The notes under the pieces were generated by a model, which worked only from the letters and a program-made list of their open reading frames with translations, searched no databases and was not told where the DNA came from. Shown here one piece after another: positions 12,611 to 30,793 of a stretch of DNA of 64,000 bases. Every line of letters starts with the position of its first letter. Position 1 is the stretch's first letter. The translations under genes were made by a program, and so were the position numbers. The stretch lies in NCBI GenBank assembly GCA_965224245.1, contig OZ245046.1, forward strand, positions 2,784,001 through 2,848,000, read 5' to 3'. The DNA comes from Candidatus Eiseniibacteriota bacterium. Its GTDB lineage: Bacteria > Eisenbacteria > RBG-16-71-46 > CAZAMP01.

Positions 12611-13040
12611 CTCTGGAGGCGGGTTTGCGCCGATCGCTGGCGAGGGTTTGTATCAGACATCGGGCTCGCAGTTCAACCGCCCCGTGCCCGGAATCTCGCT
12701 TTCCGCGAACACCCATCGCCTCGCGCACCGTATCCACCTACATGGATCGGTCCATCTCGACCGCTTCCCGCGTTCTAAATGCACGTGTGCACACGCGGGA
12801 GTCGACCCCGGGTCGGGCGGATCCCGGCCGACCTCCGACGCAACCGGGAGTGGCGGCCGATCGCCGAAGACCTTGGGAACACGTTCGTTGAGTTCGTGGT
12901 CCGGCACCGCGGCGCCCGACCGAGCGCTCGATCGAGGGCGGGAACCATCGGGAGGCCCCCCGGCCCGAACACCGATCGGCGTCGCGCCGCGGCGCGCACG
13001 GCCGGGAATCCCAGTGCCGGCGCGCCCTCGCGCCTCCGGG

Positions 13041-13901
13041 CTAGCGGAACACGACGGTGCGGTTGTCGCAGACGATCGTGCGCCGGGTCAGGTGCGAGAA
13101 CACGCCCCTGGCCAGCACGACCTTCTCCAGGTCGCGTCCCTTGCGGATCAGGTCCGCGATGGAGTCCCGGTGCGTCACGTGCGTGACGTCCTGCTCGATG
13201 ATCGGCCCCTCGTCGAGATCGGCGGTGACGTAGTGGCTGGTCGCGCCGATGATCTTGACGCCCCGCTCGTGCGCCGAGTGGTACGGCCGGGCCCCGGGAA
13301 AGGCCGGGAGGAACGAGTGGTGAATGTTGATGATGCGATTCGGGTAGCGTGAGACGAACTCGGTCGAGAGCACCTGCATGTAGCGCGCGAGCACGATCAG
13401 CTCGACGTTCTCGCGCTCGATGAGGGCGATCTCCTCCGCCTCCTGCTGGGCCTTGTTCTCGGTCGTGATCGGAAACACGTGACAGGGCACGCCGAACGCG
13501 TCGGCCACGCGCCGCGTCTCCTCGTGATTGCTGATGATGAGCGCGATCTCGCAGCGCCACCCCCGGGACTGCCATCGCGAGAGCATGTCGTAGAGACAGT
13601 GATGACGCCGGGATGCGAAGATGGCGATCCGGGGGCGGTCGTCGGAGAAATGCAGCGACCAGTCCATCCCGTACTTCTCGGCGACCAGGATGCGGAAGAA
13701 CTCCGCGATCTTCTCACGCGGGATCCCGAAGGACGACAGGTCCCACTCGACGCGCATGAAGAACCGGCTCCGCCGATCGTCCACGTGCTCGTCGACGTCC
13801 AGGATGTTGCCGCCGTTCTCCTGGAGGAACGTCGCGATGTTGGCGACGATCCCCGGCCGGTCCGGACAGTGGACGAGGAGAATCGCGGACGGGGATCTCA
13901 T
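13041..13901 (-). CDS. purU: Formyltetrahydrofolate deformylase
   Basis: ACT domain CPDRPGIVA, motifs LARYMQVLS, INIHHSFLPAF.GA.PY..AHERGVKIIGATSHYVT..LDEGPIIEQ. Confidence 0.97.
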   Translation of the reverse strand: MRSPSAILLVHCPDRPGIVANIATFLQENGGNILDVDEHVDDRRSRFFMRVEWDLSSFGIPREKIAEFFRILVAEKYGMDWSLHFSDDRPRIAIFASRRHHCLYDMLSRWQSRGWRCEIALIISNHEETRRVADAFGVPCHVFPITTENKAQQEAEEIALIERENVELIVLARYMQVLSTEFVSRYPNRIINIHHSFLPAFPGARPYHSAHERGVKIIGATSHYVTADLDEGPIIEQDVTHVTHRDSIADLIRKGRDLEKVVLARGVFSHLTRRTIVCDNRTVVFR

Positions 13902-14001
13902 GGTCGACTCGATGCCTTCCTTCTCGGTCCGCTCGGTCGAGGACGACGGCCATCCCCTGCCTCGCCCCCACGCCGAGCGCGCACGGGGATCGTGGACTCT
14001 C

Positions 14002-15180
14002 TCATGGGAAGAACCGGCGCTTCTCGCGCGACATGCGCCGCAGCTGCGCGCTGGGGCGGTAGCGGTCCTCGCCGTACTCGTGGTGGAGCGCGGTCAGCCA
14101 CTTCAGCACCTGACGCACGCCGAGATCGTCGCACCAGCGCAGGAGCCCCTTCGGGAAGTTCAGCCCCAGCGTGACCGCACGATCGATGTCGGTGGCGTCG
14201 CCGATCCCGTACAGCACGGCGTCGGCCGCCTCGTTGATCAGGAGGGCCAGGATCCGCACGAAGATGCCTTTGGCCAGCTTGCCGTCGCGCTTGGCCACCG
14301 GCGCGGGCGCGCCGTCGGTGTGATCGTAGTACCCGTGGCCGGACTTCCGTCCTAGACGTCCCGCTTCGACCATCCGGAGCTGCGTGATCGCCGGCCGGTA
14401 GCGGGGCTCGTGAAAGGACGACTCGTACATGCCGCGCGTGGTGGCCAGGCTCACGTCGGTGCCGACGAGATCCATCAGCTCGAACGGCCCCATCTTGAAG
14501 CCGCCCCGCTCGCGCATGGCCCAGTCGATCGTGGGCACGTCCGCGATCCCCTCTTCCAGGATCCGGAGTGCCTCGCCGTAGAACGGCCGGGCGACGCGAT
14601 TGACGATGAAGCCGGGCGTGTCCTTCGCGAGCACGGTCGCCTTCTCCCAGCGGTCCACGATCGAGCGGGCCTCGTTCACGACCCACTCGTCCGTCCGGAG
14701 GCCGGGTACGACCTCGACCAGCTTCATCCGCGTGGCAGGGTTGAAGAAGTGCGTGCCGATGACGCGCCCGGGTACGCGACAGGCCGACGCCAGTGCCGTC
14801 ACCGACAGCGACGACGTGTTGGTGGCGAGAATGCAGGACTCGCCCACTGCATGCTCCAGCGCCGCGAACAGCGACTGCTTGGCCGCGAGGTCCTCCACGA
14901 TCGCCTCCACCACGAGACCGGCATGGCGGGCCGATCCGACGTCGGCGTCGGTGGTGAGCCGTGCCCGGATGGAGGCGGCGTGGTCGGCGTCGATGCGATC
15001 CCTGGCGAGCTGCCGCTCGAGGCTCGCATCGATGGCCCCGGTGGCGGCATCGAGCGCCGCGGCGTCGGCGTCGATCAGGGTCACGTTGTGCCCGGCGGTG
15101 GCCGCCACCTGGGCGATGCCGCGCCCCATCGTGCCGGCGCCGATCACGCTCACGTTTGCCGGAGACGGCGTCAGACCCAT
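14002..15180 (-). CDS. 3-hydroxyacyl-CoA dehydrogenase (PaaH-like, duplicated C-terminal domain)
   Basis: GAGTMGRGIA, ATNTSSLS, HFFNPA, DTPGFIVNR, MGPFELMD. The ATG overlaps the upstream TAA (TAATG). Confidence 0.93.
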   Translation of the reverse strand: MGLTPSPANVSVIGAGTMGRGIAQVAATAGHNVTLIDADAAALDAATGAIDASLERQLARDRIDADHAASIRARLTTDADVGSARHAGLVVEAIVEDLAAKQSLFAALEHAVGESCILATNTSSLSVTALASACRVPGRVIGTHFFNPATRMKLVEVVPGLRTDEWVVNEARSIVDRWEKATVLAKDTPGFIVNRVARPFYGEALRILEEGIADVPTIDWAMRERGGFKMGPFELMDLVGTDVSLATTRGMYESSFHEPRYRPAITQLRMVEAGRLGRKSGHGYYDHTDGAPAPVAKRDGKLAKGIFVRILALLINEAADAVLYGIGDATDIDRAVTLGLNFPKGLLRWCDDLGVRQVLKWLTALHHEYGEDRYRPSAQLRRMSREKRRFFP

Positions 15181-17483
15181 TACTTGAACCTCGGGGTGAA
15201 GCGGTCGATGGATGCGTACGGCGCCGGCCACGGCATGGGGTACCCGAGCTCGTAGGCGGCGTGCCGCGTCCAGTACGGGTTCCACAGATGCATGCGGGCC
15301 AGCGCGCAGAGATCCGCACGGCCGGCGGCCAGGATCGTGTTCACGTCCGTGAACGACGAGATGTTCCCGACCGCCATCGTCGGAATGCCGACCTCGTGCC
15401 GGATGCGATCCGAGAACGGCGTCTGGAACAGCCGCCCGTACACGGGCCGCTGATCGGGGACGGTCTGTCCGGCCGACACGTCGGTGAGATCGCATCCGTG
15501 CATGGCCAGCATGCGCGCCACGTTCACGGCGTCGTCCGCCTCCATGCCGCCGGGGTACCAGTCGGTGGCCGAGATCCGCACCGAGATCGGCTTGTGTGCC
15601 GGCCACACCTCGCGGACGGCGTCCAGCACCTCCAGTGGATAGCGCATCCGGTTCGAAAGCGGGCCGCCGTAGTCATCGGTGCGCCGGTTCGTGAGGGGAG
15701 AGATGAAGCTCGCCAGGAGGTACCCATGGGCGAAGTGCAGCTCGACCAGATCGAAGCCCGCCTCCCCGGCCAGGTGCGTCGCGCGCACGAAGTCGTCCCG
15801 TACGGCATCCATGTCGGCCCGCGTCATCTGCCTCGGCACCTGACTGTAGGAGAACCACGGGATCGGCGACGGCGCCACGAGCGGCCAGTCCCCCTCCGGG
15901 AGCGGCTCGTCGGCGCCCTCCCAGGGCACGCGGGTGGCGCCCTTCCGGCCGGCGTGGGAGAGCTGCACCCCGATCTTCGCGTCGGTGTGCGCGTGCACGA
16001 AGTCCACGATGCGGCGCCACGCCGGGACGTGGGCACCCTCGTAGAGCCCGGTGCACCCCGGCGAGATACGGCCCTCGGCGCTCACGTCGGTCATCTCGGT
16101 CATCACCAGCCCCGCGCCGCCGATCGCGCGGCTTCCCAGGTGAACGAGGTGCCAGTCGTTCGGGAGTCCCTCGCGCGCGCTGTACTGGCACATGGCCGAC
16201 ACGACGACGCGGTTCTCGAGGCGGAGATCGCGCAGGCGGAACGCGGTCATGCACGGAGGAGGCGGCGCGCCGGCCGGGGACAGAGGAGTGGGCCGGCCGC
16301 TGGCGGCATCGGCCTGGGCGTGAAACCACGCATCGACCTCGCGAACGTACCCGGGGTCGCGCGCCCGCAGATCCTCGTGCGTGATGCGGAGACTCCGGGT
16401 CAGGAGCGTGAAGCCGAACTGCACGGGCTCGAGGTCATGGTACCGCTCGACCTCCTCGAACCAGACGAGACTCGCCTGCGCGGCTCGCTGGAGGCTCTCG
16501 ACCGGCGGACGTCGCTCGGCCTCGTAGGCGTCGAGGGCCTTCCGGACGCCGTCCTGCATCGTCCGCCGGTCGCCGGGAACGCCGCGCCCCCCTCCCAGCG
16601 CGCCGAAGGCCTCGCGGAGCGCGATGGCGTCCTCGAGCGCGAGCTTCGTCCCCGATCCCACCGAGAAGTGGGCGGTATGGGCGGCGTCCCCGACCAGGAC
16701 GACGTTCTCGTGACTCCATCGTCCGTTTCGCACCGTCGGAAAGCGGCGCCAGATCGAGCGGTTGCCCACGAGCCGGTGTCCGTCCAGCTCCTCGGCGAAG
16801 AGCGCCTCGCAAAACGAGACCGCCGCCGATTCGTCGTCGGGATCGAGCCCGGCGCGGTCGAACGTCTGGCCGGTGGCTTCGACGATGAACGTCGAGAGCC
16901 CGTTCTCGTACTGATACGCGTGGCCACGCCACAGCCCGTGCTCGTCCTCTTTGAAGTAGAACGTGAACGCCGGAAACGGACGGGTGGTCCCCAGCCAGAC
17001 GAACCGATTCGGCCGCAGGTCGATGGTCGTCTCGAAGTGCTCACGCCGGTCGTCACGGATGCGGCTGTTGATGCCGTCCGCCGCGATCACGAGATCCGCC
17101 TCGCGGTGAGCGTCCAGAGCATGCACGTCGGTCTCGAACCGAACGTCGACCCCGACCTCCCGGGCCCGCTCGGCCAGGATCGACAGAAGACCGAGGCGCG
17201 AGAGACCCGCGAAGCCGTGTCCGGTGGATCTGAGGACGCGGCCCCGGTAGTGGATGTCGATGTCGTCCCAGTGAGTGAAGCGATCGGTGATGGCGCGCCA
17301 GGACGGCTCGTCCGCCTCGCGGAGGTTGTCCATCGTGGCGTCCGAGAACACCACGCCGAAGCCGAACGTGTCGTCGATCCGGTTGCGTTCGAACACCGTC
17401 ACGTCTCGGGACGGATCGGCCAGCTTGAACAGGATCGCCGAGTAGAGGCCGCCGGGCCCTCCGCCCACGACGTGGATCTTCAC
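15180..17483 (-). CDS. abmA: Bifunctional anthraniloyl-CoA monooxygenase/reductase (salicylyl-CoA 5-hydroxylase family)
   Basis: FAD monooxygenase half ([49 protein letters not shown]) fused to an OYE half ([41 protein letters not shown]). GTG at 17483 overlaps the upstream TGA. Confidence 0.92.
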
Positions 17484-18634
17484 GAGCCGCTCTCCCCGTG
17501 CATGCCGATCAGCTGACCGGCGATCAGGAGTCGCTGGATCTCGGTCGTGCCCTCGTAGATCCGGAGCGCCCGCACGGCTCGCTGAAGATGATCGACGACA
17601 TGGTCGGCCATCACGCCGCGTCCCCCGAGAATCTGCACCGCGCCGTCGACGATGCGTCCGGCGGCCTCGGTCGCGTACGACTTCGCCATCGCCGCCTCCA
17701 GCGTCACCCGGGAGGCACCCCCGTCCTTCGCCCACGCCGTGCGGTACACGAGCAGGCGGCTCGCCACGAGCTCGGTCGCCATGCGCGCCAGCTTGTCCTG
17801 AACGAGCTGAAACTCGACCAGCGGCTGACCGAACTGCCGGCGCGTGCGCGCGTGCGCGAGCGCCTCGTCCAGTGCCCGGGCGGCCATCCCGCACGCGGTC
17901 GCGCCGACCGAGCCGCGCAGCCGATCCAGCACCCCGAGCCCGACGCGGAGCCCCTTTCCCTCCTCCATCAGGCGATGATCGAGTGGGATGCGACACCCGC
18001 CGAACGACACCTCGCCCAGCGGGTGCGGCGCGCTCATGACCTGCGCGCCCGCGAAGCGGCAGCCCGATGTCGACGCGGGCACGACGAACGCGGAGATGCC
18101 CGCGCCCTCCACGGTCGCGAACACGACGTAGACGTCGGCGATGCCGGCGTTGGAGATGAACGCCTTCTCACCCTCGATCACGTATTGATCGCCGTCACGC
18201 CGCGCCGTCGTGCGCAGCGCCCCCACGTCCGATCCCGCCTCCCGCTCGGTCATCGCGAAGCCACCGATCGCCGTACCCTCCAGGAGCGGGCCGAGCCACC
18301 GATCCCGCATGGCCGCGTTCCCTGAGACGATCAGGGACGTCGCCGCGAGCGCCTGGATCGCGAACACCGCGTCCGCCAGCGGAGAGTGGTAGCCGAGCGC
18401 CTCGCGCGCGATGGCGACCCGGCGCAGGTCCTGGGCTCCGATGGCCTCGAGCCAGCCGCCCCGGGCGAGGCGGATGGCGATCCCGGGCGCCTGGGCGCGG
18501 GCGTCCGCGTCGGACTCGGGTAGCGGGCGCGCGGTCAGCTCGGGGGCCGACGCGTGCACCCGATCCATCCACTCGACGTGCCGCGGCTCGAGAAAGGCGC
18601 GGACGGGCGCCGCGTCCAGCATGAACGCGCTCAC
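17480..18634 (-). CDS. Acyl-CoA dehydrogenase
   Basis: [54 protein letters not shown] coupling at both ends. Confidence 0.92.
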
Positions 18635-19440
18635 GAGAACCGCGCCGGCCGCTTGGCCACGAACGCATCGTGCGCCTCGCGGAAGTTCGGGTTCAGCATG
18701 CACGCGGCCTGGATCTCGCCCTCGGCCGCGAACGCGCTCTCGAGATCCATGTGGGCCTCCCGGTTCAGGTACGCCTTGGTGACCTCGAGCGCGAAGGACG
18801 GACCCGCCGCCAGCTTGCGGGCGAACGCGGTGGCCTCGGCGGCGAGCGCGTCGTTCGGGACGACCCGGTTGTAGAGCCCGATGCGGTGGGCCTCGGCGGC
18901 CGAGATGAAATCGCCGGTCATCAGGAGCTCGGTCGCGTGACCGAGGCCCACGATGCGAGGCAGGAGCCACGCCGCCCCCATGTCGGCCCCGGAGAGACCG
19001 ACCTTCGTGAACAGGAACGCGATCTTCGCCGCTTCCGACGCGATCCGAACGTCGCTGGCCGCCGCCATCACGGCCCCCGCGCCGGCCACGGTTCCGTTCA
19101 GGCCGGCCACGACGGGCCGCCGGCACCGTCGCATGGCCAGGATCAGGTCGCAGGTGAGCCGCGTGAAGTCGAGTAGCTCCTCGTACGTCTTCTCGAACAG
19201 ACGTCCGATGATGTCGTTCACGTCGCCGCCGGAGCAGAACGCGCGCCCGGCCCCGGTCAACAGTATCGTCCGCACGCCCGGCTCGGTGTCGAGCGCCCGG
19301 AACGTGTCGCGCAGCTCCTCGTAGACCTCGAACGTCAGGGCATTGAGCCGGTCGGGTCGATCGAGCGTGATCGTCGCGACGTCGTGCTCGGTGTCGAGTT
19401 CGTACCGAAACGAGCGGGGGGTCGGCGGCATTGGCGTCAC
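18631..19440 (-). CDS. Enoyl-CoA hydratase/isomerase
   Basis: ITLDRPDRLNALT, GRAFCSGGDV, GAGAVMAAASD.R, GLSGADMGAAWLLPRIVG. Confidence 0.93.
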   Translation of the reverse strand: MTPMPPTPRSFRYELDTEHDVATITLDRPDRLNALTFEVYEELRDTFRALDTEPGVRTILLTGAGRAFCSGGDVNDIIGRLFEKTYEELLDFTRLTCDLILAMRRCRRPVVAGLNGTVAGAGAVMAAASDVRIASEAAKIAFLFTKVGLSGADMGAAWLLPRIVGLGHATELLMTGDFISAAEAHRIGLYNRVVPNDALAAEATAFARKLAAGPSFALEVTKAYLNREAHMDLESAFAAEGEIQAACMLNPNFREAHDAFVAKRPARFS

Positions 19441-19850
19441 TCCTGATGCGGGGGCAGTACGGCCGTGGCCTCGATCTCCACGAGCGCACCCTCGTCCACG
19501 AGGCGGGAGACCTCAACGAGGGCCATCGCCGGGTAGTGCCGCCCCAGGCGCTCGCGCCAGGCGCGACCCAGACGCTCGCGTCCGGACAGATAGGCGTCCA
19601 GATCGGCCACGTACACGGTCATGCGTCCGATGTCGGACGGCGCGCCGCCGGCCTCCGACACGACCTCGAGTATGCGGTCGAGCGCGCGCGCGAACTGATC
19701 CACGAGATCCCCGTCGATGATGCGCCCGTTCTCGTCGGATGCCGCCTGTCCGGCCACGAAGAGCAGACGTCCGCCGGGCGGAGCGACGAGGCCGTTGTTC
19801 CACCCGCTCGGCTGGCCGAGGCTCTCGGGATTGATGATGTCGAAGCTCAC
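19437..19850 (-). CDS. RidA/YjgF-family enamine/imine deaminase
   Basis: LFVAGQ, HYPAMALVEVSRL....LVEIEATAV. GTGA coupling to the SDR stop. Confidence 0.9.
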   Translation of the reverse strand: MSFDIINPESLGQPSGWNNGLVAPPGGRLLFVAGQAASDENGRIIDGDLVDQFARALDRILEVVSEAGGAPSDIGRMTVYVADLDAYLSGRERLGRAWRERLGRHYPAMALVEVSRLVDEGALVEIEATAVLPPHQE

Positions 19851-20671
19851 GAGAGCAGCCCTCCTCCGTCCACGACGATCGCCTGGCCGATCACGCTGCC
19901 CGCGTTCTCGTGCGCGAGCATGGTCACCACGTGCGCGACCTCGGTGACCGTGACCAGCCGGCGGTGTCTCGCACTCGAGAGGATCGACTCCAGCGCCGCC
20001 TCGCGCGAGAGGTCGGTCTTCTCGACGATGCGGTCCAGTGTCTCGTCGGTCATCGCGGTGTCCACGTATCCGGGACACACGGCGTTCACGGTCACGCCCC
20101 TGGGCGCCAGCTCGGCCGCCACCGAGCGCGTGACGCCCATCACGGCGTGCTTGGACGCCGCATAGGTGGCGGTGTACGGCGCGCCGGTGAGTGCGGCGAC
20201 CGAGGCCACGTTGACGATGCGGCCGTAGCCCCTCGCCGCCATCGACGGCGCGAACGCGCGAATGCACAGGAACGCACCGGTGGCGTTGACGGCCATCACG
20301 CGGTTCCACTCGTCCAGCTCGATCCGGGCCAGCGGCGCCGAGGATCCGATGCCCGCGTTGTTCACCAGGACCTCGATGGGTCCGGCCGCGTCCTCGGCCG
20401 CCCGGGCGAGGGCCAGGACGCTGTCGGCGTCGGAGACGTCGGCCGGAACCGCTGTCGCCCGCCCCCCGCTGGCGCCGATGGCCGTCGCCACGGACTCGAT
20501 CTCGTGGGTCGTGCGCGCCGCGAGCACGACGTGGTGCCCGCGCGATGCCAGCGCCTCGGCCACCGCGCGGCCGATCCCGCGTCCGGCGCCCGTGACCACC
20601 GCGCCCGACGCCGCCGGCACCCGGTCCGCCGGGCGGCCGCTCGCCGAGGATCGGCGATCGTGGCCCGTCAC
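19847..20671 (-). CDS. SDR-family NAD(P)-dependent oxidoreductase
   Basis: VTGAGRGIG, LVNNAG, YAASK catalytic motif, VNAVCPGYVDT. Confidence 0.93.
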   Translation of the reverse strand: MTGHDRRSSASGRPADRVPAASGAVVTGAGRGIGRAVAEALASRGHHVVLAARTTHEIESVATAIGASGGRATAVPADVSDADSVLALARAAEDAAGPIEVLVNNAGIGSSAPLARIELDEWNRVMAVNATGAFLCIRAFAPSMAARGYGRIVNVASVAALTGAPYTATYAASKHAVMGVTRSVAAELAPRGVTVNAVCPGYVDTAMTDETLDRIVEKTDLSREAALESILSSARHRRLVTVTEVAHVVTMLAHENAGSVIGQAIVVDGGGLLS

Positions 20672-21438
20672 GTCCGATCTCTCCGCTCGCCGAAGAGCGT
20701 GATCGCCGCGTCGTACACGACGTCGCCGAGTGTCTCGACGGTCGCCCGTCCCTCCTCGGCGGTGGCCTCGGCAGGCGCACCGAAGTACGCGCGCGGCCCG
20801 CCCGCCTCGTGAAACGTGCGCTTTCCCTCGCGCACGGCGACCGACAGCGACGCGGGGTTGGGCGCCAGCTCCCGCTGTACGTCGTGCCGGACCAGATCCG
20901 ACCGCTCGCTCATGACGATCGACCCCTCGTAACGCCCGGCGTGGCAGGCGCCGCTCTTGAACTCGTCGGTGAGACGCAGCGCCCACGGCCGGCGCGTCAC
21001 GTTCGGAAACGCGACGTCGATCCCGTGCTCGTCGCGGCACGCGGCCACCGCCGCATCGATGGCCGACAGGTTGGCCGGATCGACGTGCGCGTTCGCCACG
21101 ACCAGTCGCGCGAGGCCGTGACGGGCGAGCCCACGGGCGACGTCCGTCACGAGCGAGACGAACGTGTCCGCCGCGACCGAGATCGTCCCCGCGAACGCTT
21201 CGGCGAACGGGGCGGGCGAGTACGCGAGCACCGGGAGGAGCACGACGTGGTAGCCCTCGTCCGCCAGTCGCTCGCCGCCCCGGCGGGCCATCGCCTCGGA
21301 GATGACGACGTCGGTACCCAGCGGGAGGTGCGGGCCGTGTGCCTCGATCGCGCCGATCGGCAGGATCGCCACCGCGCGGCTCCGATCGAGTCGCTCGACG
21401 TCTTCGTAGGTCATCTCGTCGAGTCGCTCGAGGGGCAT
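20668..21438 (-). CDS. Creatininase-family metal-dependent amidohydrolase
   Basis: PIGAIEAHGPHLPLGTD, NAH, HAGRYEGS, G.P..ATAEEG. First gene of the stop/start-coupled catabolic operon. Confidence 0.9.
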   Translation of the reverse strand: MPLERLDEMTYEDVERLDRSRAVAILPIGAIEAHGPHLPLGTDVVISEAMARRGGERLADEGYHVVLLPVLAYSPAPFAEAFAGTISVAADTFVSLVTDVARGLARHGLARLVVANAHVDPANLSAIDAAVAACRDEHGIDVAFPNVTRRPWALRLTDEFKSGACHAGRYEGSIVMSERSDLVRHDVQRELAPNPASLSVAVREGKRTFHEAGGPRAYFGAPAEATAEEGRATVETLGDVVYDAAITLFGERRDRT

Positions 21439-21498
21439 CGCCAGATCTCTCGGCTGCTGCGCGCCATCGGGCGCGCCAAGTCCCGTCCACGTCGGTAG

Positions 21499-21526
21499 TT
21501 GACCGCTTGCAAAACTCACGTATCAT
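21499..21526 (+). promoter_or_regulatory. Sigma70-type promoter for the CoA ligase
   Basis: TTGACC-N16-TATCAT in an AT-enriched patch, 8 nt before the ATG at 21535. Confidence 0.6.
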
Positions 21527-21534
21527 ACCGTCCC

Positions 21535-23073
21535 ATGACGTTCCGTCCACCGGAAGAATTCAATCTCGCCACGTACCTCCTGGGCGCGCGGCTCGACGCC
21601 GGAGACGGCGAGCGGGTCGCGATCGTCACCGACGAGGCCGCGCTCACGTATCGGGACGTGGATCACCTGTCGAACCGGTTCGCCAACCTGCTCCGCGAGA
21701 TGGGCATTCGACCCGAGGAGCGCGTGGTGGTGGCGCTCGAGGACGGGCCCGCGTTCGTGGGCGCGCTCTTCGGCATCCTGAAGGTCGGCGCCGTCGTCGT
21801 GATGCTGAATCCGGAGCTCAAGCCCGACGCCATCTCGTACTTCTACCGGTACACGCGCGCACGGTACGCGTTCTGCGAGGTGTCCCGGGCCGATCCCTGG
21901 CGCCGGGCGGCGCGCTCGGCCCCTCTCCTGGAGCAGGTATGCCTCGTCGGCACCGCCGACGTCGACGAGGCGCTCGCATCCGCCTCGGCCGCGTCGCCCG
22001 TCTTCGACACGCACCGCGACGATCCGGCCATCTGGCTCTTCTCCGGGGGCACCACCGGACGACCCAAGGCCGTGATCCAGACGCACCGGTCGTTCGCGAA
22101 CACGACCGAGCTCTACGGGAAGCGCACGATCGGGTACACCGCCGACGACGTGACGATCTCGGCCCCGAAGCTCTTCTTCGGCTACGCCACCGGGTCGAAC
22201 CTGTTCTTCCCGTTCTCGGTCGGAGCAAAGACGGTGCTGTTCCCCGAGCGGTGCACCGCCGAGCGGCTGTTCGATGCCATCGAGCGGCACCGGCCGACGA
22301 TCCTCGTGGCCGTCCCCACGATGATCCGCAATTTGATCTCACACGAGAGCGCCGCCAGCCGGGATCTCTCGTCGCTCCGCATCGCCACGTCGGCCGGCGA
22401 GGCACTTCCGCCCGAGCTCCACGCCCGGTGGAACGAGGCATTCGGCGTGGACCTTCTGGATGGTCTGGGCACGGCCGAGATGTGGCACATCTTCATCTCC
22501 AACCGTCCCGGCCACGTGACGCCCGGCACGCTGGGCCGCGCCGTCGACGGCTTCGAGGTCCAGGTGTGCGACGACGACGGTCGGCCGGTGGCCGACGGGG
22601 AGACCGGCTGGCTCCGCGTGAAGGGCGAGTCCCGCGGGCTCGGGTACTGGCACCAGCTGGAGAAGACGTGCGACGGCTTCCAGGGTCACTGGTACGTGAC
22701 CGGCGACATGGTCACCCGCAACGCCGACGGCACGTTCACGTACGCCGGACGCGGCGACGACATGCTGAAGGTCTCGGGCAAGTGGCTCGCCACGCGCGAG
22801 GTCGAGGAGTGTCTGGCCACGCACCCGTCGGTGAAGGAAGCGGCCGTGATCGGCGTCGTCGACGCCGATGGGCTCACGAAGCCCCATGCGTTCGTGGTGC
22901 CGCATGCGCATGACGACACTCTGTCCGACACGCTGAAGGAGTACGTGCGCTCGCGCCTCGAGTCGTACAAGTACCCGCGGGAGATCGTGTTTCTCGACGA
23001 TCTGCCGCGCACGCACCTGGGCAAGGTGGATCGCGGCAAGCTACGCGGCTCGTCCCCGCGGAGAGCGTCCTAG
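21535..23073 (+). CDS. Benzoate/2-aminobenzoate-CoA ligase family protein
   Basis: FSGGTTGRPK, KLFFGYATG, SAGEALP, DGLGTAE..HIFISN, YAGRGDDMLKVSG, GKVDR. Confidence 0.92.
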   Translation: MTFRPPEEFNLATYLLGARLDAGDGERVAIVTDEAALTYRDVDHLSNRFANLLREMGIRPEERVVVALEDGPAFVGALFGILKVGAVVVMLNPELKPDAISYFYRYTRARYAFCEVSRADPWRRAARSAPLLEQVCLVGTADVDEALASASAASPVFDTHRDDPAIWLFSGGTTGRPKAVIQTHRSFANTTELYGKRTIGYTADDVTISAPKLFFGYATGSNLFFPFSVGAKTVLFPERCTAERLFDAIERHRPTILVAVPTMIRNLISHESAASRDLSSLRIATSAGEALPPELHARWNEAFGVDLLDGLGTAEMWHIFISNRPGHVTPGTLGRAVDGFEVQVCDDDGRPVADGETGWLRVKGESRGLGYWHQLEKTCDGFQGHWYVTGDMVTRNADGTFTYAGRGDDMLKVSGKWLATREVEECLATHPSVKEAAVIGVVDADGLTKPHAFVVPHAHDDTLSDTLKEYVRSRLESYKYPREIVFLDDLPRTHLGKVDRGKLRGSSPRRAS

Positions 23074-23152
23074 CCCCGCCACGGGTGAGATCACGGCGGC
23101 ACGAGGCCGGGCGTCGCGGGACCCGGCGTCGGAGGGATGCGTGCGCACCGAC

Positions 23153-24286
23153 TCAGCGCATCGTGTCCGGCGAATCCACGAGCGTGTGACCGGACGTCTC
23201 GAACGCGTAGTACGCCGCGTTCTCCAGCCTCGGCACGCGATCGCGCGGCAACAGGATCGACCGCACCTCCCACAGCTCGGTGAAGATGTGCTCGTGTGCG
23301 CGCGCGTGCAGGTAAGAGGCTCCGGGGGAGCCCCCGGTGCCGGGCCGCTGGCCGATCACGCGCTCCACCATGCGGGCATGCCGTGTTCGCCACAGGAGCA
23401 GGCGCTCCTCCACCTCCACGATGGTGTCGATCAGCAGCCGGGGCCAGGCCAGGAGCGGCAGCGTCCGATACGACTCGATGAACAAGAGCGCCGCCCGCGT
23501 GCGGAGCGTACGTGCCCGGTCGGCCTCGGGAACGTCCTCGGCGAACAGGAACTGCCGCGCGTGCGCGATCATCGCCTCGAGCCGGGCGCGGGGGTCGCCA
23601 CCGGCGGTGGGCGCCGGATACCGTGACAGGGCCGCCTCCTGCACGTCGCGGTACGCCTCGAAATAGGCGGTCAGGAATCGGCGGACACGATCGATGTCGT
23701 CGGGATCGGTCGGGCGGGAGCCGTCGATCGGCGTGCGCCCCAGCCACTCGTGCAGCGCCTGGCGCAGCGACATCTCGCCGCGAACACGCTCGATGTCGGC
23801 CCAGATGGCCGCGCCGTCCGACGCCGACTCCGTCGCCCGTCTCAGCAGCGGCAGGATGTCCTCGCCGTACCGGGAGGACGGATCGTCCTCGATGCCGAGC
23901 AAGATCTCGAGCTGCCGGTACTGGAACGACTGAAAGCCGCTGGCCGGGACCAGCTTATCCCGGAAGTCGATGAAGTCCTGCGGGGTGAGCGTCTCCACGA
24001 CGTCGAACTGGGCGTTGGCGTGACCGAGAATCACGTTCACCCGCCGGAGATGGTGCACGACGTACGGGATCTTCTCCTCGGGCACGACCGGTCGCGACAG
24101 CTCGTCGCGGGCCAGCCGCAGCTCGTGGATCGTGAGCTTGAACCAGAGCTCGAAGACCTGATGCACGATGATGAAGTGGATCTCGTCGGAGGCGAGGCGC
24201 GATTCGTCGACCTCCAGCCCCCCCTGCAGGTTCAGGAGATCGGGAAGCCGGAGATAGCTCCAGTAGTTCGGGGCCTCGCGCGTCAC
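23153..24286 (-). CDS. kynA: Tryptophan 2,3-dioxygenase (long form)
   Basis: Y..YL.L..LL.LQ, DE..FII.HQ..ELWFK, SGFQS.QYR..E, WR.RH..MVERVIG...GTGGS.G..YL. GAAGGAGG RBS. Confidence 0.93.
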   Translation of the reverse strand: MTREAPNYWSYLRLPDLLNLQGGLEVDESRLASDEIHFIIVHQVFELWFKLTIHELRLARDELSRPVVPEEKIPYVVHHLRRVNVILGHANAQFDVVETLTPQDFIDFRDKLVPASGFQSFQYRQLEILLGIEDDPSSRYGEDILPLLRRATESASDGAAIWADIERVRGEMSLRQALHEWLGRTPIDGSRPTDPDDIDRVRRFLTAYFEAYRDVQEAALSRYPAPTAGGDPRARLEAMIAHARQFLFAEDVPEADRARTLRTRAALLFIESYRTLPLLAWPRLLIDTIVEVEERLLLWRTRHARMVERVIGQRPGTGGSPGASYLHARAHEHIFTELWEVRSILLPRDRVPRLENAAYYAFETSGHTLVDSPDTMR

Positions 24287-24341
24287 GATTGCCTCCTTCG
24301 TCGGCGCCGACGACTGATGATGTCAGCGTCGGCGCGTCGCC

Positions 24342-25499
24342 TCAACCGCTATTCCGCGGGGTACGCGCCGACACGCACGAGAAGGCGGACGACAGGAACG
24401 TCCAGATCAGATCGAGCTGATCGGCGACCGGCATCGCCACGAGCCCCGCTCGAGAGGCCTCCTCCCGCACCGACGCCATGGCGGCGATCGTCTCGGGCGA
24501 GCTCCGCCGATCGTCGGGCACGACGTCGAGACGCGCGCGCCACCGCGCGAGGCGCTCGGCCCAGCGTCTCCTGGGCTCGGCGTCCGGATCCAGGTCCGCG
24601 CCGAGTCCCGGCGTGATGAAGAGGGGCATCTCGGACACGAGGGTGAGCGTGTCGCGTCCGAGCCGGCGGGCCACGTCCATCGAGCTCGGCCGGAATCGCG
24701 CCGCGACCTCGGGCTCACCGAGCGCATCGAAGTGCGCCCGCATCGCGTCGGCGCTGGGGCGTGTCGCGAAGCCCCGACCCAGCCGGTGGAAGCCCTTCTC
24801 TCCCCGGCGGTCGACGTCGTGCGGCGTGTAGCCCAGTCGCTGACAGGCGCTCAGGCACGCCCGGCGTACGGGCTCGATGCGATCGCGCCAGGCATCCTCG
24901 ACGAGGAACCAGGGACCACCGGCGGTGCCCATGCCATGGAGCGACGCGTGCAGACGGGGACGCACGTCCTCGGCTCGCCACCACCGGAGGATCGCCGTCG
25001 TCTCGGGTCTCGCTCCGGAATCGCCGTCGTGGGCGGGGAACCCGAACTCGAGGTCGTCGCCCGGGCGCTCGCGGACGACGTGACGGAGGTAATGCGCCAC
25101 GTCGAAGCCGGCATCCACGCGCTCGGGTCGACGATCGTGAGGCGCGGGCACGGAGTCGGTCCATGTCCGGTTCCGCTCCGCGCCGTCGGGGTTTACGTGC
25201 GGGACGATCCACCAGGTGGCGGCGCCGAGGAGGCCGGTGGCGCGCGGGGCACCGGCCAGGAACACGACGAACGCGCGCAGGAACATCGGTCCCACGGGCT
25301 CGTCGGCGTGGCAGCCGGCAATGAGACTCACGTGCACGGGACCGCTGCCCAGCCGATGGGCCACGATCGCTCGTCCCTCGCGGGAGCGGCCGATCACCCG
25401 GCCCGCCGGCTCGCCGGCCCGGGCACCGTGGCCGGCAGGGGCCCGATCCCCCGGGGCACCGGCGCTCGCCGCCGCGGCCAGCACGTCCGCGATCGTCAC
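24342..25499 (-). CDS. M14-family zinc carboxypeptidase/deacylase-like protein
   Basis: IGRSREGR, AGCHADEPVG (HxxE), P.VNPDG, SLHGM, SEMPLF. No signal peptide seen. Confidence 0.8.
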   Translation of the reverse strand: MTIADVLAAAASAGAPGDRAPAGHGARAGEPAGRVIGRSREGRAIVAHRLGSGPVHVSLIAGCHADEPVGPMFLRAFVVFLAGAPRATGLLGAATWWIVPHVNPDGAERNRTWTDSVPAPHDRRPERVDAGFDVAHYLRHVVRERPGDDLEFGFPAHDGDSGARPETTAILRWWRAEDVRPRLHASLHGMGTAGGPWFLVEDAWRDRIEPVRRACLSACQRLGYTPHDVDRRGEKGFHRLGRGFATRPSADAMRAHFDALGEPEVAARFRPSSMDVARRLGRDTLTLVSEMPLFITPGLGADLDPDAEPRRRWAERLARWRARLDVVPDDRRSSPETIAAMASVREEASRAGLVAMPVADQLDLIWTFLSSAFSCVSARTPRNSG

Positions 25500-25543
25500 C
25501 CCCGCCGCGGGGGTGACGCGTCCTCGCCCGGGCTCAGCCCCCG

Positions 25544-26383
25544 TCAGCGCAGCACGCGCACCGTGCCCGACACGATGGGCGCCCCCCCGGAGTCCACGCG
25601 GTACAGGTACACGCCCGCCGGTACCGTCCGACCCGCGGCATCCCGGACATCCCAGCTCAGCGAGCGATCGGCGTCACCGAGGCGCCAGCGGCGAACCTCG
25701 CGACCGGCCACGTCGAACAGGGACAGGAGCCCGCCGCCCGCGTCCGGCGGCAACGTCACCCGGATGCGCGCCGATCCCACGACGGGGTGCGGCAGAAACG
25801 CGACGCGCGACGGCGCGTCGGCCGAGCCGGGCTCGCCGGCCGACAGGGGCGCGTCGGTCACGTCGATCACCGCGCCGCTCAGAACGACCTGTCGCGGAAA
25901 CGTCGCGTGTCCCGGAAAGATGAACAGCCCGTCGTCGAAGAACGTGCGATCGGGATCCGACGTGGGCGCGATCGCACTCGTCCCCAGCGCCTCGGCGCGG
26001 AATCGGAACGTCGACAGGACGCCCGGCCCATCGACCGAGACGCCGCTGCACAGGAGCACGTGCGAGTACGTCACCGTGGACGCGGTCGTCGCGACGTCGG
26101 TGAAGCGCGTCCCGCAGGCCGAGGTCATCAGGGCCCCCTCTTCGACCGAATCGAACGAGACGACCGCCGGATCGAACGTGATCTCGATCTCGTATCCGTT
26201 GAACTGAAGCGCAGTCTCGTCCACCTCGAAGGTGATCTCGACCAGGCTGTCCGCGGCCACGTCGTTGAACGCGGGAAGCAGGAAGGCATGGAACTCGGGC
26301 ACGCCGTCGGACGTCGCGTGCGACGCGTCCGCGGTCACGAAAAGGCCCCAGACGACGCTCGCGAGGATCCGTCGCTTGCTCAT
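25544..26383 (-). CDS. Secreted protein with a cohesin-like domain and FlgD/T9SS-like CTD
   Basis: Signal peptide. FNGYEIEITFDPAVVSFDSVEEGALM...GPGVLSTFRFRA...GTSAI is a cohesin-like pattern. CTD FDVAGR...WDVRDAAGRTVPAGVY. Confidence 0.75.
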   Translation of the reverse strand: MSKRRILASVVWGLFVTADASHATSDGVPEFHAFLLPAFNDVAADSLVEITFEVDETALQFNGYEIEITFDPAVVSFDSVEEGALMTSACGTRFTDVATTASTVTYSHVLLCSGVSVDGPGVLSTFRFRAEALGTSAIAPTSDPDRTFFDDGLFIFPGHATFPRQVVLSGAVIDVTDAPLSAGEPGSADAPSRVAFLPHPVVGSARIRVTLPPDAGGGLLSLFDVAGREVRRWRLGDADRSLSWDVRDAAGRTVPAGVYLYRVDSGGAPIVSGTVRVLR

Positions 26384-26492
26384 GTGAAGTTGCCCCATCG
26401 GTTGTGGCCGGGAGCGGAGCGGGCTCCGGCTCCCGGCCGACTGACTTGGATCGTGTGCCACGTCCTGGGCACGCGATCGCGCGCTCGGGGCG

Positions 26493-29264
26493 CTATCGAG
26501 ACAGGAAGACCTTTCGGGTCTCCTCGAGACCGTTCGTCCGGAGCCGGTACATGTACACACCCGCCGGAACGAGGTGGCCGGCGTCCGAACGTCCGTCCCA
26601 CGCGATCGCGTGTCGACCGGCCGTGAGCATACCCTCACTGAGCGTGCGCACCGAGCGTCCGGTCACGTCGTAGACCTCGAGCTCGACGTGAGCGCCGCGG
26701 GCCAGATCGAACGAGATGTGGGTCGTCGTGCGGAACGGGTTGGGGCGCGCGCCGATGAGGTGCGTCACCACCGATGGACCGACGTCGGGCTGATCGCCGG
26801 AGATCGGCGCACCGAGGCGACGATTGGCGTCGTCGCGGAGGTCGCCGAGCACGATGGACGGCGCCGACCTCGGCCGCACGACCTCGAAGCGGAGCGTGGC
26901 CAGATCGCCGGATCCGACGATCGTGCGGCCCCGACCGAGGATCGCGCTGTCGATGACGAGCCCGTCCGGCGCGTCGTCGTGGGCCTGGAACGCACGCGCC
27001 GACTGATCACCCAGGAGCGCTCCCCGACCGACGCCGACGAGCCGCAGCGCGTCGCGATCGTAGTCGAGCACGGCGTGTACGGCCTTCGTGATCGACGTGT
27101 TGCCCTCGAGCACCAGGCGCGCCACCAGCGTGCCGCCGTCGACCGGGTCGACGACCAGGCTCAGGGCCGGCGCGTCGGCTCCGACCGCAGGATCACCGGC
27201 GGTCGGCTGCTCGCGGCTGACCTCGCCGAAGTTGATTCCGAACACGACGAGATCCTCGAAGTTGATCTCGTTGTCGGTCGTGGGCAGGCCGGTCGCCGAG
27301 AAGTCGTCGGTCGGGCCCACGTCGAGGCACGCGATCGGATCGCCGTCGGTGATGGTCTGGAAGTAGTTCGCTCCCAGAAGGCTGATGTCGGCCGTGGAGA
27401 CCGCGTTGTCGCCGTCACACGCGGCCAGGCCGTCCGAGACGTCGCCGAGGTGATAGTTCAGGGTGCCCGTGGTCCCGTTCGACGCCGGCGAGACCTCGCC
27501 GCAGGCCGAGGTCACGAACGCGACGTAGTAGTAGTAGTCGCGGGCGAGCGTCTCGTCGACCTGACCCGACGCCGTGACGCCGGTGAGCGTCCAGCCGTTC
27601 ACGAGCGCATCGGCCGGATCGGTCGGCAGTGCGGGCACGGCGCCTCCGAGGTCGTCGTACTCGGGATAGCTGCCGAAGCCCTTGCGGTAGACCTCGACCG
27701 CGTTGCCCACGCCGGGTTCGGTGAAGGAGATCGTGATGCCCGTGGTGCCGTCGGTGTCGTTGCCGGCGACCACCTGCGTGGCCGCGAGGTCGACGATGGC
27801 GACCGGAGCCGCCACGTCGATCCCGATCTCGAGCACGGGACCGGGATCGCCGGGGATCGGCTGGTTGTCGCAGTCCCGGATCGTCACCGCGTCGACGGTG
27901 AGGGTGCCCACGCCGTCGGTGCCGGTGTCGGTGACGTCGACCGTGAACAGGACCCCGGGATCGGTCGGGCCGCAGTTGCCGCCGAGGATCGTGGCGTCCA
28001 CGGTATAGGAGCCACCGCCCAGATCGGCCACCTGGAACGCGGTGCAGCCGCCGCCGCAGAACCCGGACAGATACGATCCTTCGATGACGCTGCTGGTGCC
28101 GGCGCACAGCGCCAGCTCGGGACTGAGCGTGAACGTGACCGAGTACGCGCGAACGGGGTCTGTGTTCGTGCGCTCGAAGTAGAAGTCGATCGTCTGGCAG
28201 GGCTCGACCTCTGTGATGCAGTCGCCCGTACCCTGTGGCTGCACCTCGTCCACGCCCACGAAGGTCGCGGTGAGGACGAGCTCGGTCGCGCCGTACGTGG
28301 GAACGAGCAGCATGCCGCCCCCGAGGTCGAGGCTCGCCGTGTCCGAGAACGTGCCGGACGCCGACCCGTAGGTCGCGACCGTGAACATGTCACCGTCGGT
28401 CGGGAAGAAGCCGCCGATCAGCGACACGTCGATGGCGCCGTCGAGCGTGGCCGTGCCGCTCACGGCCAGCACGTCGTACTCGCCGGCGAGCGTGCCGCCG
28501 AGCTCGATGGCCAGCGAGCCACCCGAGCCCTGGTCGAAGTCCCCGGTCACGGACAGCGTGCCCGCGCCCGAGCCCGGGCTCACGGTGCCGTCGTTGCCGA
28601 GCGACGCGGTGGTCACCGTGCCCTCGCCCGTGACCTCGCCGTCAGATGTGTTCGTCAGCGTCGGCACGTCGAGGGACGAGCCGGGGCCGAGAACGACGTC
28701 CCCGTTGTTCGTCAGCGCCGACGACAGCGTGAGGGACGCGGTCGGGGTCAGCATGATCGTCGAGCCCGTGTTGGACGTGATCGGCGCGCTGATCGTGCTC
28801 ACTCCCGACACCTCGAGCTGGCCGCTGTTCGCCATGCTGGAGACCGAGATCGTGGATCCGTCCAGCGTGACCAGCGCCAGGTTCGACAGGACGCCGGAAC
28901 CGGTCACGTCTCCGCCGTTGCTGATCGAGAGCACGCCACCCTGATTGAAGACCGACGGCGTGGCCGACGTGATCGTGAGCGAGGTCGCGTCGACGAGCAC
29001 CTGCTGCTGGCCGATCGCCGAGCCGGCGGTCACGCGGATCACCGTCACCGGAGCGTCGACCGTCACGTTGTAGGTTCCACCGACCTGAACGAACGCGATG
29101 TCGGAGGCGCCGGGCACCTGCATCGGGTCCCATTTCGTCGCGTCGGACCAGTTGCCGTTGACCGACGCATCCCAGTTGATCACGATGGCGCTCGCCGACA
29201 GCGGCGCCGCCAGCGTCGCGATCACCGAGACGGCTCCGAGGGTCCTTCGATTGAGTAGGTTCAT
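26493..29264 (-). CDS. Secreted multidomain protein: beta-helix-like N-region, cohesin-like, FnIII-like, dockerin-like, second cohesin-like, FlgD/T9SS-like CTD
   Basis: GAAGGAG RBS and signal peptide ..ASA. Passenger-type repeat GTVSPGSGAGTLSVTGDF...ELGG...YDVL.VSG.ATLDG. Paired Ca-loop helices DGDNAVSTADISLLGANY and DNEINFEDLVVFGINFG. CTD PNPF...WDGRSDAG..VPAGVY. Confidence 0.8.
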   Translation of the reverse strand: MNLLNRRTLGAVSVIATLAAPLSASAIVINWDASVNGNWSDATKWDPMQVPGASDIAFVQVGGTYNVTVDAPVTVIRVTAGSAIGQQQVLVDATSLTITSATPSVFNQGGVLSISNGGDVTGSGVLSNLALVTLDGSTISVSSMANSGQLEVSGVSTISAPITSNTGSTIMLTPTASLTLSSALTNNGDVVLGPGSSLDVPTLTNTSDGEVTGEGTVTTASLGNDGTVSPGSGAGTLSVTGDFDQGSGGSLAIELGGTLAGEYDVLAVSGTATLDGAIDVSLIGGFFPTDGDMFTVATYGSASGTFSDTASLDLGGGMLLVPTYGATELVLTATFVGVDEVQPQGTGDCITEVEPCQTIDFYFERTNTDPVRAYSVTFTLSPELALCAGTSSVIEGSYLSGFCGGGCTAFQVADLGGGSYTVDATILGGNCGPTDPGVLFTVDVTDTGTDGVGTLTVDAVTIRDCDNQPIPGDPGPVLEIGIDVAAPVAIVDLAATQVVAGNDTDGTTGITISFTEPGVGNAVEVYRKGFGSYPEYDDLGGAVPALPTDPADALVNGWTLTGVTASGQVDETLARDYYYYVAFVTSACGEVSPASNGTTGTLNYHLGDVSDGLAACDGDNAVSTADISLLGANYFQTITDGDPIACLDVGPTDDFSATGLPTTDNEINFEDLVVFGINFGEVSREQPTAGDPAVGADAPALSLVVDPVDGGTLVARLVLEGNTSITKAVHAVLDYDRDALRLVGVGRGALLGDQSARAFQAHDDAPDGLVIDSAILGRGRTIVGSGDLATLRFEVVRPRSAPSIVLGDLRDDANRRLGAPISGDQPDVGPSVVTHLIGARPNPFRTTTHISFDLARGAHVELEVYDVTGRSVRTLSEGMLTAGRHAIAWDGRSDAGHLVPAGVYMYRLRTNGLEETRKVFLSR

Positions 29265-29881: not shown

Positions 29882-30793
29882 ATGCTGCGTGTTCGAAAGC
29901 TCGTGAAGGTCTATCCCGGCCCGGTGACGGCGCTGGAAGGCATCGACCTCGACGTCGAGCCGGGGATGTTCGGACTCCTCGGGCCCAACGGGGCCGGCAA
30001 GTCGACCACGATGCGGATCCTGGCGGGCCTCCTGGAGGCCACGTCGGGCGAGGTCGAGCTCGACGGCCACGACATTCTCACGGATCCCGCGTACGTCCGC
30101 CGGTGCCTCGGATACCTGCCCCAGGATTTTGGCTTCTACCCGAACCTGACCGGCGAGGCCATGCTGGCGTATCTGCTGCGCCTCAAGGGCGTCGTCGCGC
30201 CGTCCGGGTACCGGTCCCTGGTCGGGAGCCTGCTGGAACGCGTCAACCTGAGCCATGCAGCCAGGCGCAAGCTGAAGGGTTACTCGGGAGGCATGCGGCA
30301 GCGCCTGGGGATCGCGCAGGCCATTGCGGGCGACCCCCGGATCATCATCGTGGACGAGCCGACGGCGGGCCTCGACCCCGAGGAGCGCCACCGCTTCTAT
30401 CGACTCCTGGCCGAGCTCGCGACCGATCGCATCGTGCTGTTGTCGACGCACATCGTGGAGGACGTCGCCGTGCTGTGCTCGCGATTCGCCGTGATCTCCG
30501 GCGGGCGCCTGGTGACCACGACCACGCCCACCGAGGCGCGCGACGCGCTGGCGGGAGGCATGTTCGAGGGACACGCCACCGACGAGGAGGTCCTGCAGCT
30601 CGGCCGGCGGTATCGCGTCACGCAGGCGGTGCTGGTCGAGGGACGCAACCGCGTCCGCATTCACGCCCCCGGCGGCGATCCGCCCCACGGCTTCGACCCG
30701 GTCGCACCGTCCCTGGAAGATGCCTACATGGCACTCGTTCGCGGAGCCCAGGACGCGCCGGACGCAACCGTCGAGACCGGGAGCATCCGATGA
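29882..30793 (+). CDS. ABC transporter ATP-binding protein
   Basis: Walker A GPNGAGKST, signature YSGGMRQR, Walker B IIVDEP, STH switch. Confidence 0.96.
   Translation: MLRVRKLVKVYPGPVTALEGIDLDVEPGMFGLLGPNGAGKSTTMRILAGLLEATSGEVELDGHDILTDPAYVRRCLGYLPQDFGFYPNLTGEAMLAYLLRLKGVVAPSGYRSLVGSLLERVNLSHAARRKLKGYSGGMRQRLGIAQAIAGDPRIIIVDEPTAGLDPEERHRFYRLLAELATDRIVLLSTHIVEDVAVLCSRFAVISGGRLVTTTTPTEARDALAGGMFEGHATDEEVLQLGRRYRVTQAVLVEGRNRVRIHAPGGDPPHGFDPVAPSLEDAYMALVRGAQDAPDATVETGSIR

Follow-up and report, generated by a model that had tools for sequence, protein, structure and literature searches.

Which enzyme removes the formyl group when a bacterium channels tryptophan into 2-aminobenzoyl-coenzyme A (2-aminobenzoyl-CoA)? 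The question is raised by a stretch of 64,000 nucleotides (the window) from a Candidatus Eiseniibacteriota genome, referred to below as G000 (GenBank assembly GCA_965224245.1, contig OZ245046.1; C1:2784001-2848000 in genome coordinates). Here the gene for a creatininase-family metallo-amidohydrolase, which we call CREAT, lies close to genes for an aryl-CoA ligase (LIG) and for tryptophan 2,3-dioxygenase (TDO, the product of kynA). The product of TDO, N-formylkynurenine, requires deformylation, and among bacterial genomes with kynA there are many in which kynurenine formamidase figures as a classic “missing gene”. From genomic context and phyletic pattern we infer, with a probability of roughly 0.55, that CREAT is an aryl-formamidase standing in for the non-homologous enzyme KynB in the route from tryptophan to 2-aminobenzoyl-CoA. 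Such a non-orthologous replacement had been suggested by an inspection of the letters of the window (the sequence-only reading), and it gains support here from the co-occurrence of CREAT with the pathway genes, from its anti-correlation with KynB and from related clusters that lack CREAT.

We further think it probable that the creatininase-fold enzyme represents a third class of kynurenine (aryl) formamidase, so far unrecognised, within a nine-gene operon that is common in soil phyla, among them Eisenbacteria and Gemmatimonadota. KynB (PF04199, TIGR03035) is a metal-dependent enzyme of the cyclase fold that clusters with kynA and kynU and catalyses the same reaction as proposed for CREAT (PF02633); the two are unrelated in fold and family and nearly mutually exclusive in the genomes sampled, so that the likeness would be one of analogy and not of homology. 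The eukaryotic kynurenine formamidases AFMID/Bna7, which carry out the same reaction, are alpha/beta-hydrolases with a serine-hydrolase fold. Our literature searches returned no paper in which creatininase-family proteins are associated with kynurenine formamidase, formylkynurenine or aminobenzoyl-CoA. If the proposal is true, a third non-homologous class would account for the missing formamidase of large soil lineages, most of them uncultured, and thousands of “creatinine amidohydrolase” annotations would be corrected (5767 relatives were found at E<=1e-20). In addition, a single locus would be seen to encode the whole route by which tryptophan enters the aerobic CoA-dependent anthranilate pathway, the lower steps of which are as yet only partly known.

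The CREAT operon and its conservation

Genes of the region (G+C about 70%) were called from the G+C content of third codon positions (GC3) and then scanned with Pfam and NCBIfam. A minus-strand operon of overlapping or nearly abutting genes begins with CREAT, which is followed by genes for a short-chain dehydrogenase (SDR), a RidA-family deaminase, an enoyl-CoA hydratase (ECH), an acyl-CoA dehydrogenase (ACAD), an AbmA-type protein, a 3-hydroxyacyl-CoA dehydrogenase (HADH) and a PurU-like protein. The AbmA-type protein is a flavin adenine dinucleotide (FAD) monooxygenase fused to a reductase of the old yellow enzyme (OYE) type; this fused protein and the ligase each score above their NCBIfam cut-offs, which marks the locus as an operon of the abm pathway. 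The sequence-only reading had a creatininase-fold amidohydrolase heading an anthraniloyl-CoA operon, and this is confirmed. It had also set CREAT next to the ligase and kynA, and all three genes were placed correctly, with the refinement that CREAT and the ligase are divergent genes outside a common operon and that TDO, convergent with the ligase, is on a transcript of its own.

The same arrangement recurs well beyond this genome. A ligase gene divergent from CREAT-SDR-RidA-ECH-ACAD-AbmA was seen in 15 genome loci with CREAT proteins 53-67% identical, all from metagenome-assembled genomes (MAGs) of Eisenbacteria, Gemmatimonadota (Gemmatimonadales, Longimicrobiales), Acidobacteriota (Acidobacteria, Thermoanaerobaculia), Myxococcota and Planctomycetota. 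The full conserved order, found in at least five phyla, continues after AbmA with KynA and a divergent kynureninase. Among 29 loci that were clustered (L009-L023 and L054-L067), a short KynA (260 aa, PF03301 217 bits) lies downstream of AbmA in 20, and in 19 of those a protein of about 400 aa comes next. The long TDO of the window, used as a query, had returned no TDO in any of the 15 genome loci; this was a false negative, the KynA of the relatives being short, and a Pfam search of the genomes found it directly downstream of AbmA. The TDO of the window matches PF03301 in one stretch, and most relatives have the 260-aa KynA matched in two stretches; long forms also occur in G155, G061, G200 and G192.

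The 400-aa protein is, by its sequence profile, a divergent kynureninase. A profile built from 16 sequences aligns along the entire length of kynureninase 1qz9 from Pseudomonas fluorescens (E 1.2e-36), with agreement at the pyridoxal phosphate (PLP) lysine motif. Its match to human kynureninase has an E value of 6e-18, and matches to cysteine desulfurases begin only at 3.5e-13. The family scores only 28-30 bits on KYNU_C, goes undetected by TIGR01814 at E<=1e-10 (for instance L064:9991-11205) and is probably under-annotated in databases. The upper kynurenine module is thus present with the operon in relatives, where KynA and the kynureninase homologue follow AbmA.

Metagenomes give a similar picture. 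In 80 metagenome loci, counting for each feature only those with enough flanking DNA, 35 of 36 have the ligase upstream of CREAT in divergent orientation, 57 of 61 have SDR after CREAT, 27 of 29 contain AbmA and 21 of 25 contain TDO. No CREAT orthologue was found in the plasmid collection, where the best match, 36% identical, is an MftE. Since the operon covers the path from tryptophan to 2-aminobenzoyl-CoA except for the formamidase, and CREAT is its sole unassigned hydrolase, CREAT becomes the candidate for that step.

We envisage the following sequence of reactions. TDO (KynA) would open the pathway by converting tryptophan to N-formylkynurenine. CREAT, as a binuclear-metal amidohydrolase, would then hydrolyse the N-formyl amide in place of the cyclase-fold KynB to give kynurenine and formate, presumably with a metal-bound hydroxide attacking the formyl carbonyl. 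The divergent kynureninase would free anthranilate, and the divergently transcribed ligase would convert this to 2-aminobenzoyl-CoA. AbmA would dearomatise the latter, and RidA, SDR, ECH, ACAD and HADH would process the resulting alicyclic CoA ester.

The open reading frame (ORF) of CREAT, at 20668-21519 on the minus strand, matches the Pfam Creatininase family with 185 bits (cut-off 31.3), covering 2-232 of 238. The longest frame reaches a GTG at 21519; the likely start is the ATG at 21438, which gives 256 aa and agrees with the N-termini of 22 orthologues. CREAT is the sole PF02633 gene in G000. It stays under every NCBIfam equivalog cut-off (MftE, TIGR03964, 104.7 against 172; creatininase, TIGR04448, 83.6 against 235; IolN 42.7 against 245) and matches no cyclase model in the Pfam and NCBIfam scans, which sets it apart from the cyclase-fold KynB family (TIGR03035/PF04199). 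Its AlphaFold2 model (predicted local distance difference test, pLDDT, 89.6; predicted template modelling score, pTM, 0.89) was compared with the PDB by Foldseek, and the top matches are all creatininase-family structures (TM 0.70-0.76).

Aligned to Pseudomonas putida creatininase, residues E32, H34, D43, H118, D120, H166 and E171 of CREAT correspond to E34, H36, D45, H120, E122, H178 and E183, of which we take E34, H36, D45, H120 and E122 to be the ligands of the binuclear metal centre and H178 to be catalytic. All seven CREAT residues are invariant in 22 orthologues, with the exception of D120, where either D or E is found. The metal-ligand motifs are therefore intact, as had been proposed. 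It had also been noted that the loop reads NAHVDPAN in place of a “usual NGHGGN”, and that this suggested altered specificity. The motif is present and aligns with NGHYEN of the P. putida enzyme (NGHGGN is presumably a consensus of the creatininase family and not the sequence of creatininase itself), but on its own it is no sign of altered specificity because H-x-D keeps the H-x-E ligand pair of creatininase. The fold is thus shared with P. putida creatinine amidohydrolase (1j2t, 1q3k, 3a6j; TM 0.70-0.75), whose metal ligands and catalytic histidine align with those of CREAT; the differences are an identity of 24-25%, the reading H-V-D for H-x-E, and the lack of any creatine or sarcosine context around CREAT. 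We conclude that CREAT is a real, intact and strongly conserved member of the creatininase family without an equivalog.

Members of the family are known to act on formamides. We take archaeal ArfB, a formamide hydrolase of riboflavin biosynthesis, to be one of them. Another precedent is BrbF (SMc02977) of Sinorhizobium meliloti, which is annotated as a creatininase and was shown to deformylate an N-formylamino-pyrimidine in riboflavin biosynthesis (PMC9478397). BrbF offers an instance of aryl-type formamide hydrolysis for CREAT; it differs in substrate and pathway, the context of CREAT being catabolic, and the two are likened by family only.

Distribution of CREAT and KynB

If CREAT replaces KynB, the two should seldom be found together. 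In the phylum of G000 (201 genomes), CREAT orthologues (at least 50% identity) are separated by a clean gap from paralogues (30-41%), and 66 genomes have one. AbmA accompanies it in 63 of these and TDO in all 66; AbmA occurs without CREAT in four genomes, one of them with a CREAT fragment. By hand tally, TDO lies on the contig of CREAT and no more than about 10 kb from it in 40 of the 66 genomes, and in the other 26, which are fragmented assemblies, they lie on different contigs. KynB-like genes of at least 175 bits were found in just two of the 66 CREAT-bearing genomes (G000 and G177), as compared to eight of the 18 TDO-bearing genomes without CREAT (84 TDO-bearing genomes altogether).

A second phylum, that of G206 (151 genomes), was treated likewise. 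CREAT is present in 43 of its genomes, 42 at E<=1e-40 and G341 by tblastn. The latter had been a candidate for an operon without CREAT, none being detected at E<=1e-40, and was rejected as such when tblastn found the gene. AbmA and TDO each occur in 41 of the 43; G216 and G328, which seemed to have CREAT without TDO, were rejected as instances since their contigs are truncated. Of 81 TDO-bearing genomes here, none of the 41 with CREAT has a KynB-like gene of at least 175 bits, against 17 of the 40 without; at E<=1e-30 the numbers are eight of 41 and 24 of 40. Nine CREAT-bearing genomes of other phyla have no strong KynB-like gene (the best scoring 35 bits), and TDO is present in four of the five tested. 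These tallies include the unpublished genomes G015 and G306. The expectations of the sequence-only reading, that orthologues would co-occur with abmA and kynA and would anti-correlate with kynB, are upheld in both phyla as far as strong KynB-like genes are concerned, and the orthologues usually share an operon with kynA and the divergent kynureninase.

The distribution of AbmA itself sharpens the contrast. In the second phylum, AbmA proteins of 1047-1175 bits occur in 41 genomes, all with CREAT and none with a KynB-like gene of at least 175 bits, and those of 1188-1352 bits in 15 genomes, none with CREAT and 13 with a KynB-like gene at E<=1e-30. There are thus two classes of abm cluster, one with CREAT and KynA, the other resembling those of Paracoccus and Ralstonia, without CREAT and in genomes that mostly bear KynB. 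A Ralstonia megaplasmid, Paracoccus pTAV3 and the Eisenbacterial genome G036 carry AbmA-SDR-ECH-ACAD-LIG-RidA without CREAT or KynA; pTAV3 has a 3-hydroxyacyl-CoA dehydrogenase beside AbmA, and G036 has a pair of KynB-like and kynureninase-like genes elsewhere in its genome. In G336 (L170) a KynB-KynA pair directly abuts the ACAD-LIG-RidA part of a CREAT-less abm cluster, so that KynB itself stands beside abm genes. Since the CREAT-less clusters keep the same genes, we assign SDR, RidA, ECH, ACAD and HADH to the lower pathway; CREAT belongs to the operon type that lacks KynB.

A number of observations weigh against a formamidase role for CREAT. One concerns G000 itself, where a search for kynB, as the sequence-only reading had advised, gave in part one of the three findings that were named there as refuting. 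The sole cyclase/KynB-type gene of the genome (C1:2662824-2663432), among unrelated genes, is a full-length match to TIGR03035; its 190 bits are under the equivalog cut-off of 223, and its product is 39-44% identical to KynB-like proteins that sit in kyn contexts elsewhere. CREAT may therefore be redundant with it in this genome. Both genes also occur together in G177 (182 bits) and G015 (134 bits), and eight of the 41 CREAT-bearing genomes of the second phylum have a weaker cyclase-family gene of 134-163 bits. The claim that the window holds neither KynB nor an alpha/beta-hydrolase formamidase stands, the cyclase gene being 120 kb upstream and no alpha/beta-hydrolase domain appearing among 42 window ORFs scanned with Pfam, a set that leaves out 45929-48256, 50871-53144, 53797-56334, 59693-62215, 62656-63999 and several small ORFs, formamidases of that fold not having been searched genome-wide.

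The phyletic argument has its own weak points. Genomes with TDO and without CREAT often have no KynB-like gene either (10 of 18 in the G000 phylum, 16 of 40 in the G206 phylum, 26 in all), so the absence of KynB is no compulsion for CREAT to fill the role. In G152 and G009, which belong to one genus, a KynA-kynureninase pair stands alone (L165:7757-9741, L166:4134-6118). It is divergent from an AIR-synthase-like gene and the gene for a major facilitator superfamily (MFS) transporter, and neither CREAT nor a KynB-like gene nor any other hydrolase lies nearby; these two genomes must manage with another formamidase or with none. Within the operon CREAT is tied to the ligase/SDR end and not to KynA/KynU. 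Finally, related genomes are not independent observations: the counts are uncorrected for phylogeny, and the Fisher's test value of 3.5e-5 for CREAT versus KynB-like genes in the phylum of G000 ignores shared ancestry.

Other roles for CREAT

The strongest alternative is that CREAT acts in the lower 2-aminobenzoyl-CoA pathway, a role we initially favoured and now regard as unlikely. CREAT adjoins the ligase and the SDR-RidA-ECH-ACAD block almost without fail (the 35 of 36 and 57 of 61 loci given above), its co-occurrence with AbmA is as tight as that with TDO, it is missing where KynA and KynU stand alone, and the ring-opening hydrolase IolN is among its weak NCBIfam relatives. Biochemistry offers a possible step as well: PMC3534580, which describes the anthranilate-CoA ligase and AbmA, has a hydrolytic deamination to cyclohexanedione-carboxyl-CoA as a proposal for this pathway, and CREAT might be thought to catalyse it. 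That deamination already fits RidA, however, and our downgrading of the role came with the discovery of the CREAT-less abm clusters. In these type II clusters (Ralstonia, Paracoccus, G036 and the 15 second-phylum genomes) AbmA, SDR, ECH, ACAD, RidA and LIG are found, but CREAT never is. Their thioesterase might have been its counterpart, but it also occurs beside CREAT in three loci (L011, L014 and L081) and so is not.

One of these three, the metagenome contig L081 (112-5925), also speaks against a lower-pathway role, as it has CREAT without any lower-pathway gene. TDO and the ligase are here divergent from CREAT, which is followed by genes for an inositol-monophosphatase-family protein, a 4HBT thioesterase and a Rieske oxygenase alpha subunit, an arrangement that may represent an alternative fate for anthraniloyl-CoA. 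A lower-pathway role would also leave the anti-correlation with KynB unexplained. Abm clusters for aerobic 2-aminobenzoate metabolism were reportedly described in Azoarcus evansii by Schuhle et al. in 2001. Like the operon considered here, abm clusters comprise a ligase, an AbmA monooxygenase/reductase, beta-oxidation-type genes and RidA; those that we inspected (Ralstonia, Paracoccus and Arthrobacter plasmids) have neither CREAT nor KynA, and the present operon adds the upper tryptophan module.

Alternatively, the formamide hydrolysed by CREAT might be N-formylanthranilate. Kynureninase would in that case cleave N-formylkynurenine first, and CREAT would supply free anthranilate to the adjacent ligase. 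The tight pairing of CREAT and the ligase, which have a promoter region in common, would be well accounted for, as would the unusual divergence of the operon kynureninase and the genomes in which a KynA-KynU pair stands alone without any formamidase. Canonical kynureninases prefer kynurenine, which counts against this alternative, and we regard it as rather improbable; genomic context does not discriminate between the two formamides as substrates. It is this order of events that the boldest version of our proposal would adopt, with the divergent kynureninase cleaving N-formylkynurenine first and N-formylanthranilate being deformylated at the ligase.

It seems very improbable that CREAT merely travels with the operon and is in truth a creatininase proper, a peptidase like MftE or a hydrolase of some unrelated amide: its best NCBIfam similarities are indeed to MftE and creatininase and its closest structures are creatininases, but both scores fall far short of the equivalog cut-offs, neither mycofactocin (mft) genes nor creatine genes are found among its neighbours in the window, its position and strand are strictly conserved in one operon across at least five phyla, and its orthologues are cleanly apart from paralogues. 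Deformylation of N-formylkynurenine in place of KynB is thus the reading that we prefer.

The locus in G000 and its surroundings

The arrangement in G000 is atypical: a long TDO lies beside the ligase, HADH and PurU follow AbmA, the kynureninase-like gene is distant and a KynB-like gene is present. The genome assembly is 97.4% complete. As regards kynU, for which a search had also been advised, TIGR01814 found no match in G000, though a divergent homologue is present at C1:5193829-5195010 (L005:523-1704). It encodes 393 aa with KYNU_C and Aminotran_5 signatures, is 39% identical to the operon form of the relatives and matches best the kynureninase of P. fluorescens; no NCBIfam model matched it at E<=1e-5. 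The TDO of the window scores 159 bits against TIGR03036, under the cut-off of 390.7. HADH and the PurU-like gene (13041-15153) occupy the place after AbmA where relatives carry KynA and kynureninase. No PurU homologue was found in the related genome or metagenome loci examined, and a role for PurU in handling the formate was dropped for this lack of conservation.

The features of the locus are collected in Table 1. Between CREAT and the ligase, sigma-70-like sites were found on both strands (21499-21526 on the plus strand, 21549-21522 on the minus strand). They are consensus matches only and the sole two in 12800-25600, where shuffled sequence gave a mean of 0.5.

Table 1. Genes and intergenic region of the CREAT locus (window coordinates)
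Feature	Position	Strand	Evidence
PurU-like formyltetrahydrofolate deformylase, operon end	13041-13901	-	ACT + Formyl_trans_N
3-Hydroxyacyl-CoA dehydrogenase (HADH)	14002-15153	-	PF02737 + PF00725
AbmA-type 2-aminobenzoyl-CoA monooxygenase/reductase	15180-17483	-	NF006101 1126 bits, cut-off 1078; PF01494 + PF00724
Acyl-CoA dehydrogenase (ACAD)	17480-18634	-	PF00441, PF02770
Enoyl-CoA hydratase (ECH)	18631-19431	-	PF00378 179 bits
RidA-family enamine/imine deaminase, lower pathway	19437-19850	-	PF01042 72.7 bits
Short-chain dehydrogenase (SDR), lower pathway	19847-20620	-	PF00106 209 bits
CREAT, creatininase-family metallo-amidohydrolase, 256 aa, candidate aryl-formamidase	20668-21438	-	PF02633 185 bits
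CREAT/ligase intergenic region, divergent, 96 bp	21439-21534	.	promoter-like hexamers, extending to 21549
Aryl-CoA (2-aminobenzoate-CoA) ligase (LIG)	21535-23073	+	PF00501 + PF13193; TIGR02262 (benzoate-CoA-ligase family) 494.7 bits, cut-off 375
Tryptophan 2,3-dioxygenase (TDO), long form, 377 aa	23153-24286	-	PF03301 177.6 bits, single stretch 16-346 of 346

The neighbourhood on either side (24342-29225 and 7705-12513) encodes proteins that seem to be secreted or located at the cell surface and to have no connection with the operon. It includes an M14 carboxypeptidase-like gene upstream of TDO, two proteins with C-terminal FlgD_ig domains, one of them of 910 aa, and a 1602-aa protein with nine fn3 repeats and a DUF5060 domain. 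Further along, an ABC ATPase gene (29903-30793) lies upstream of a gene at 30790-34410 for a 1206-aa protein in which ABC-2 membrane domains are fused to an M1 peptidase domain.

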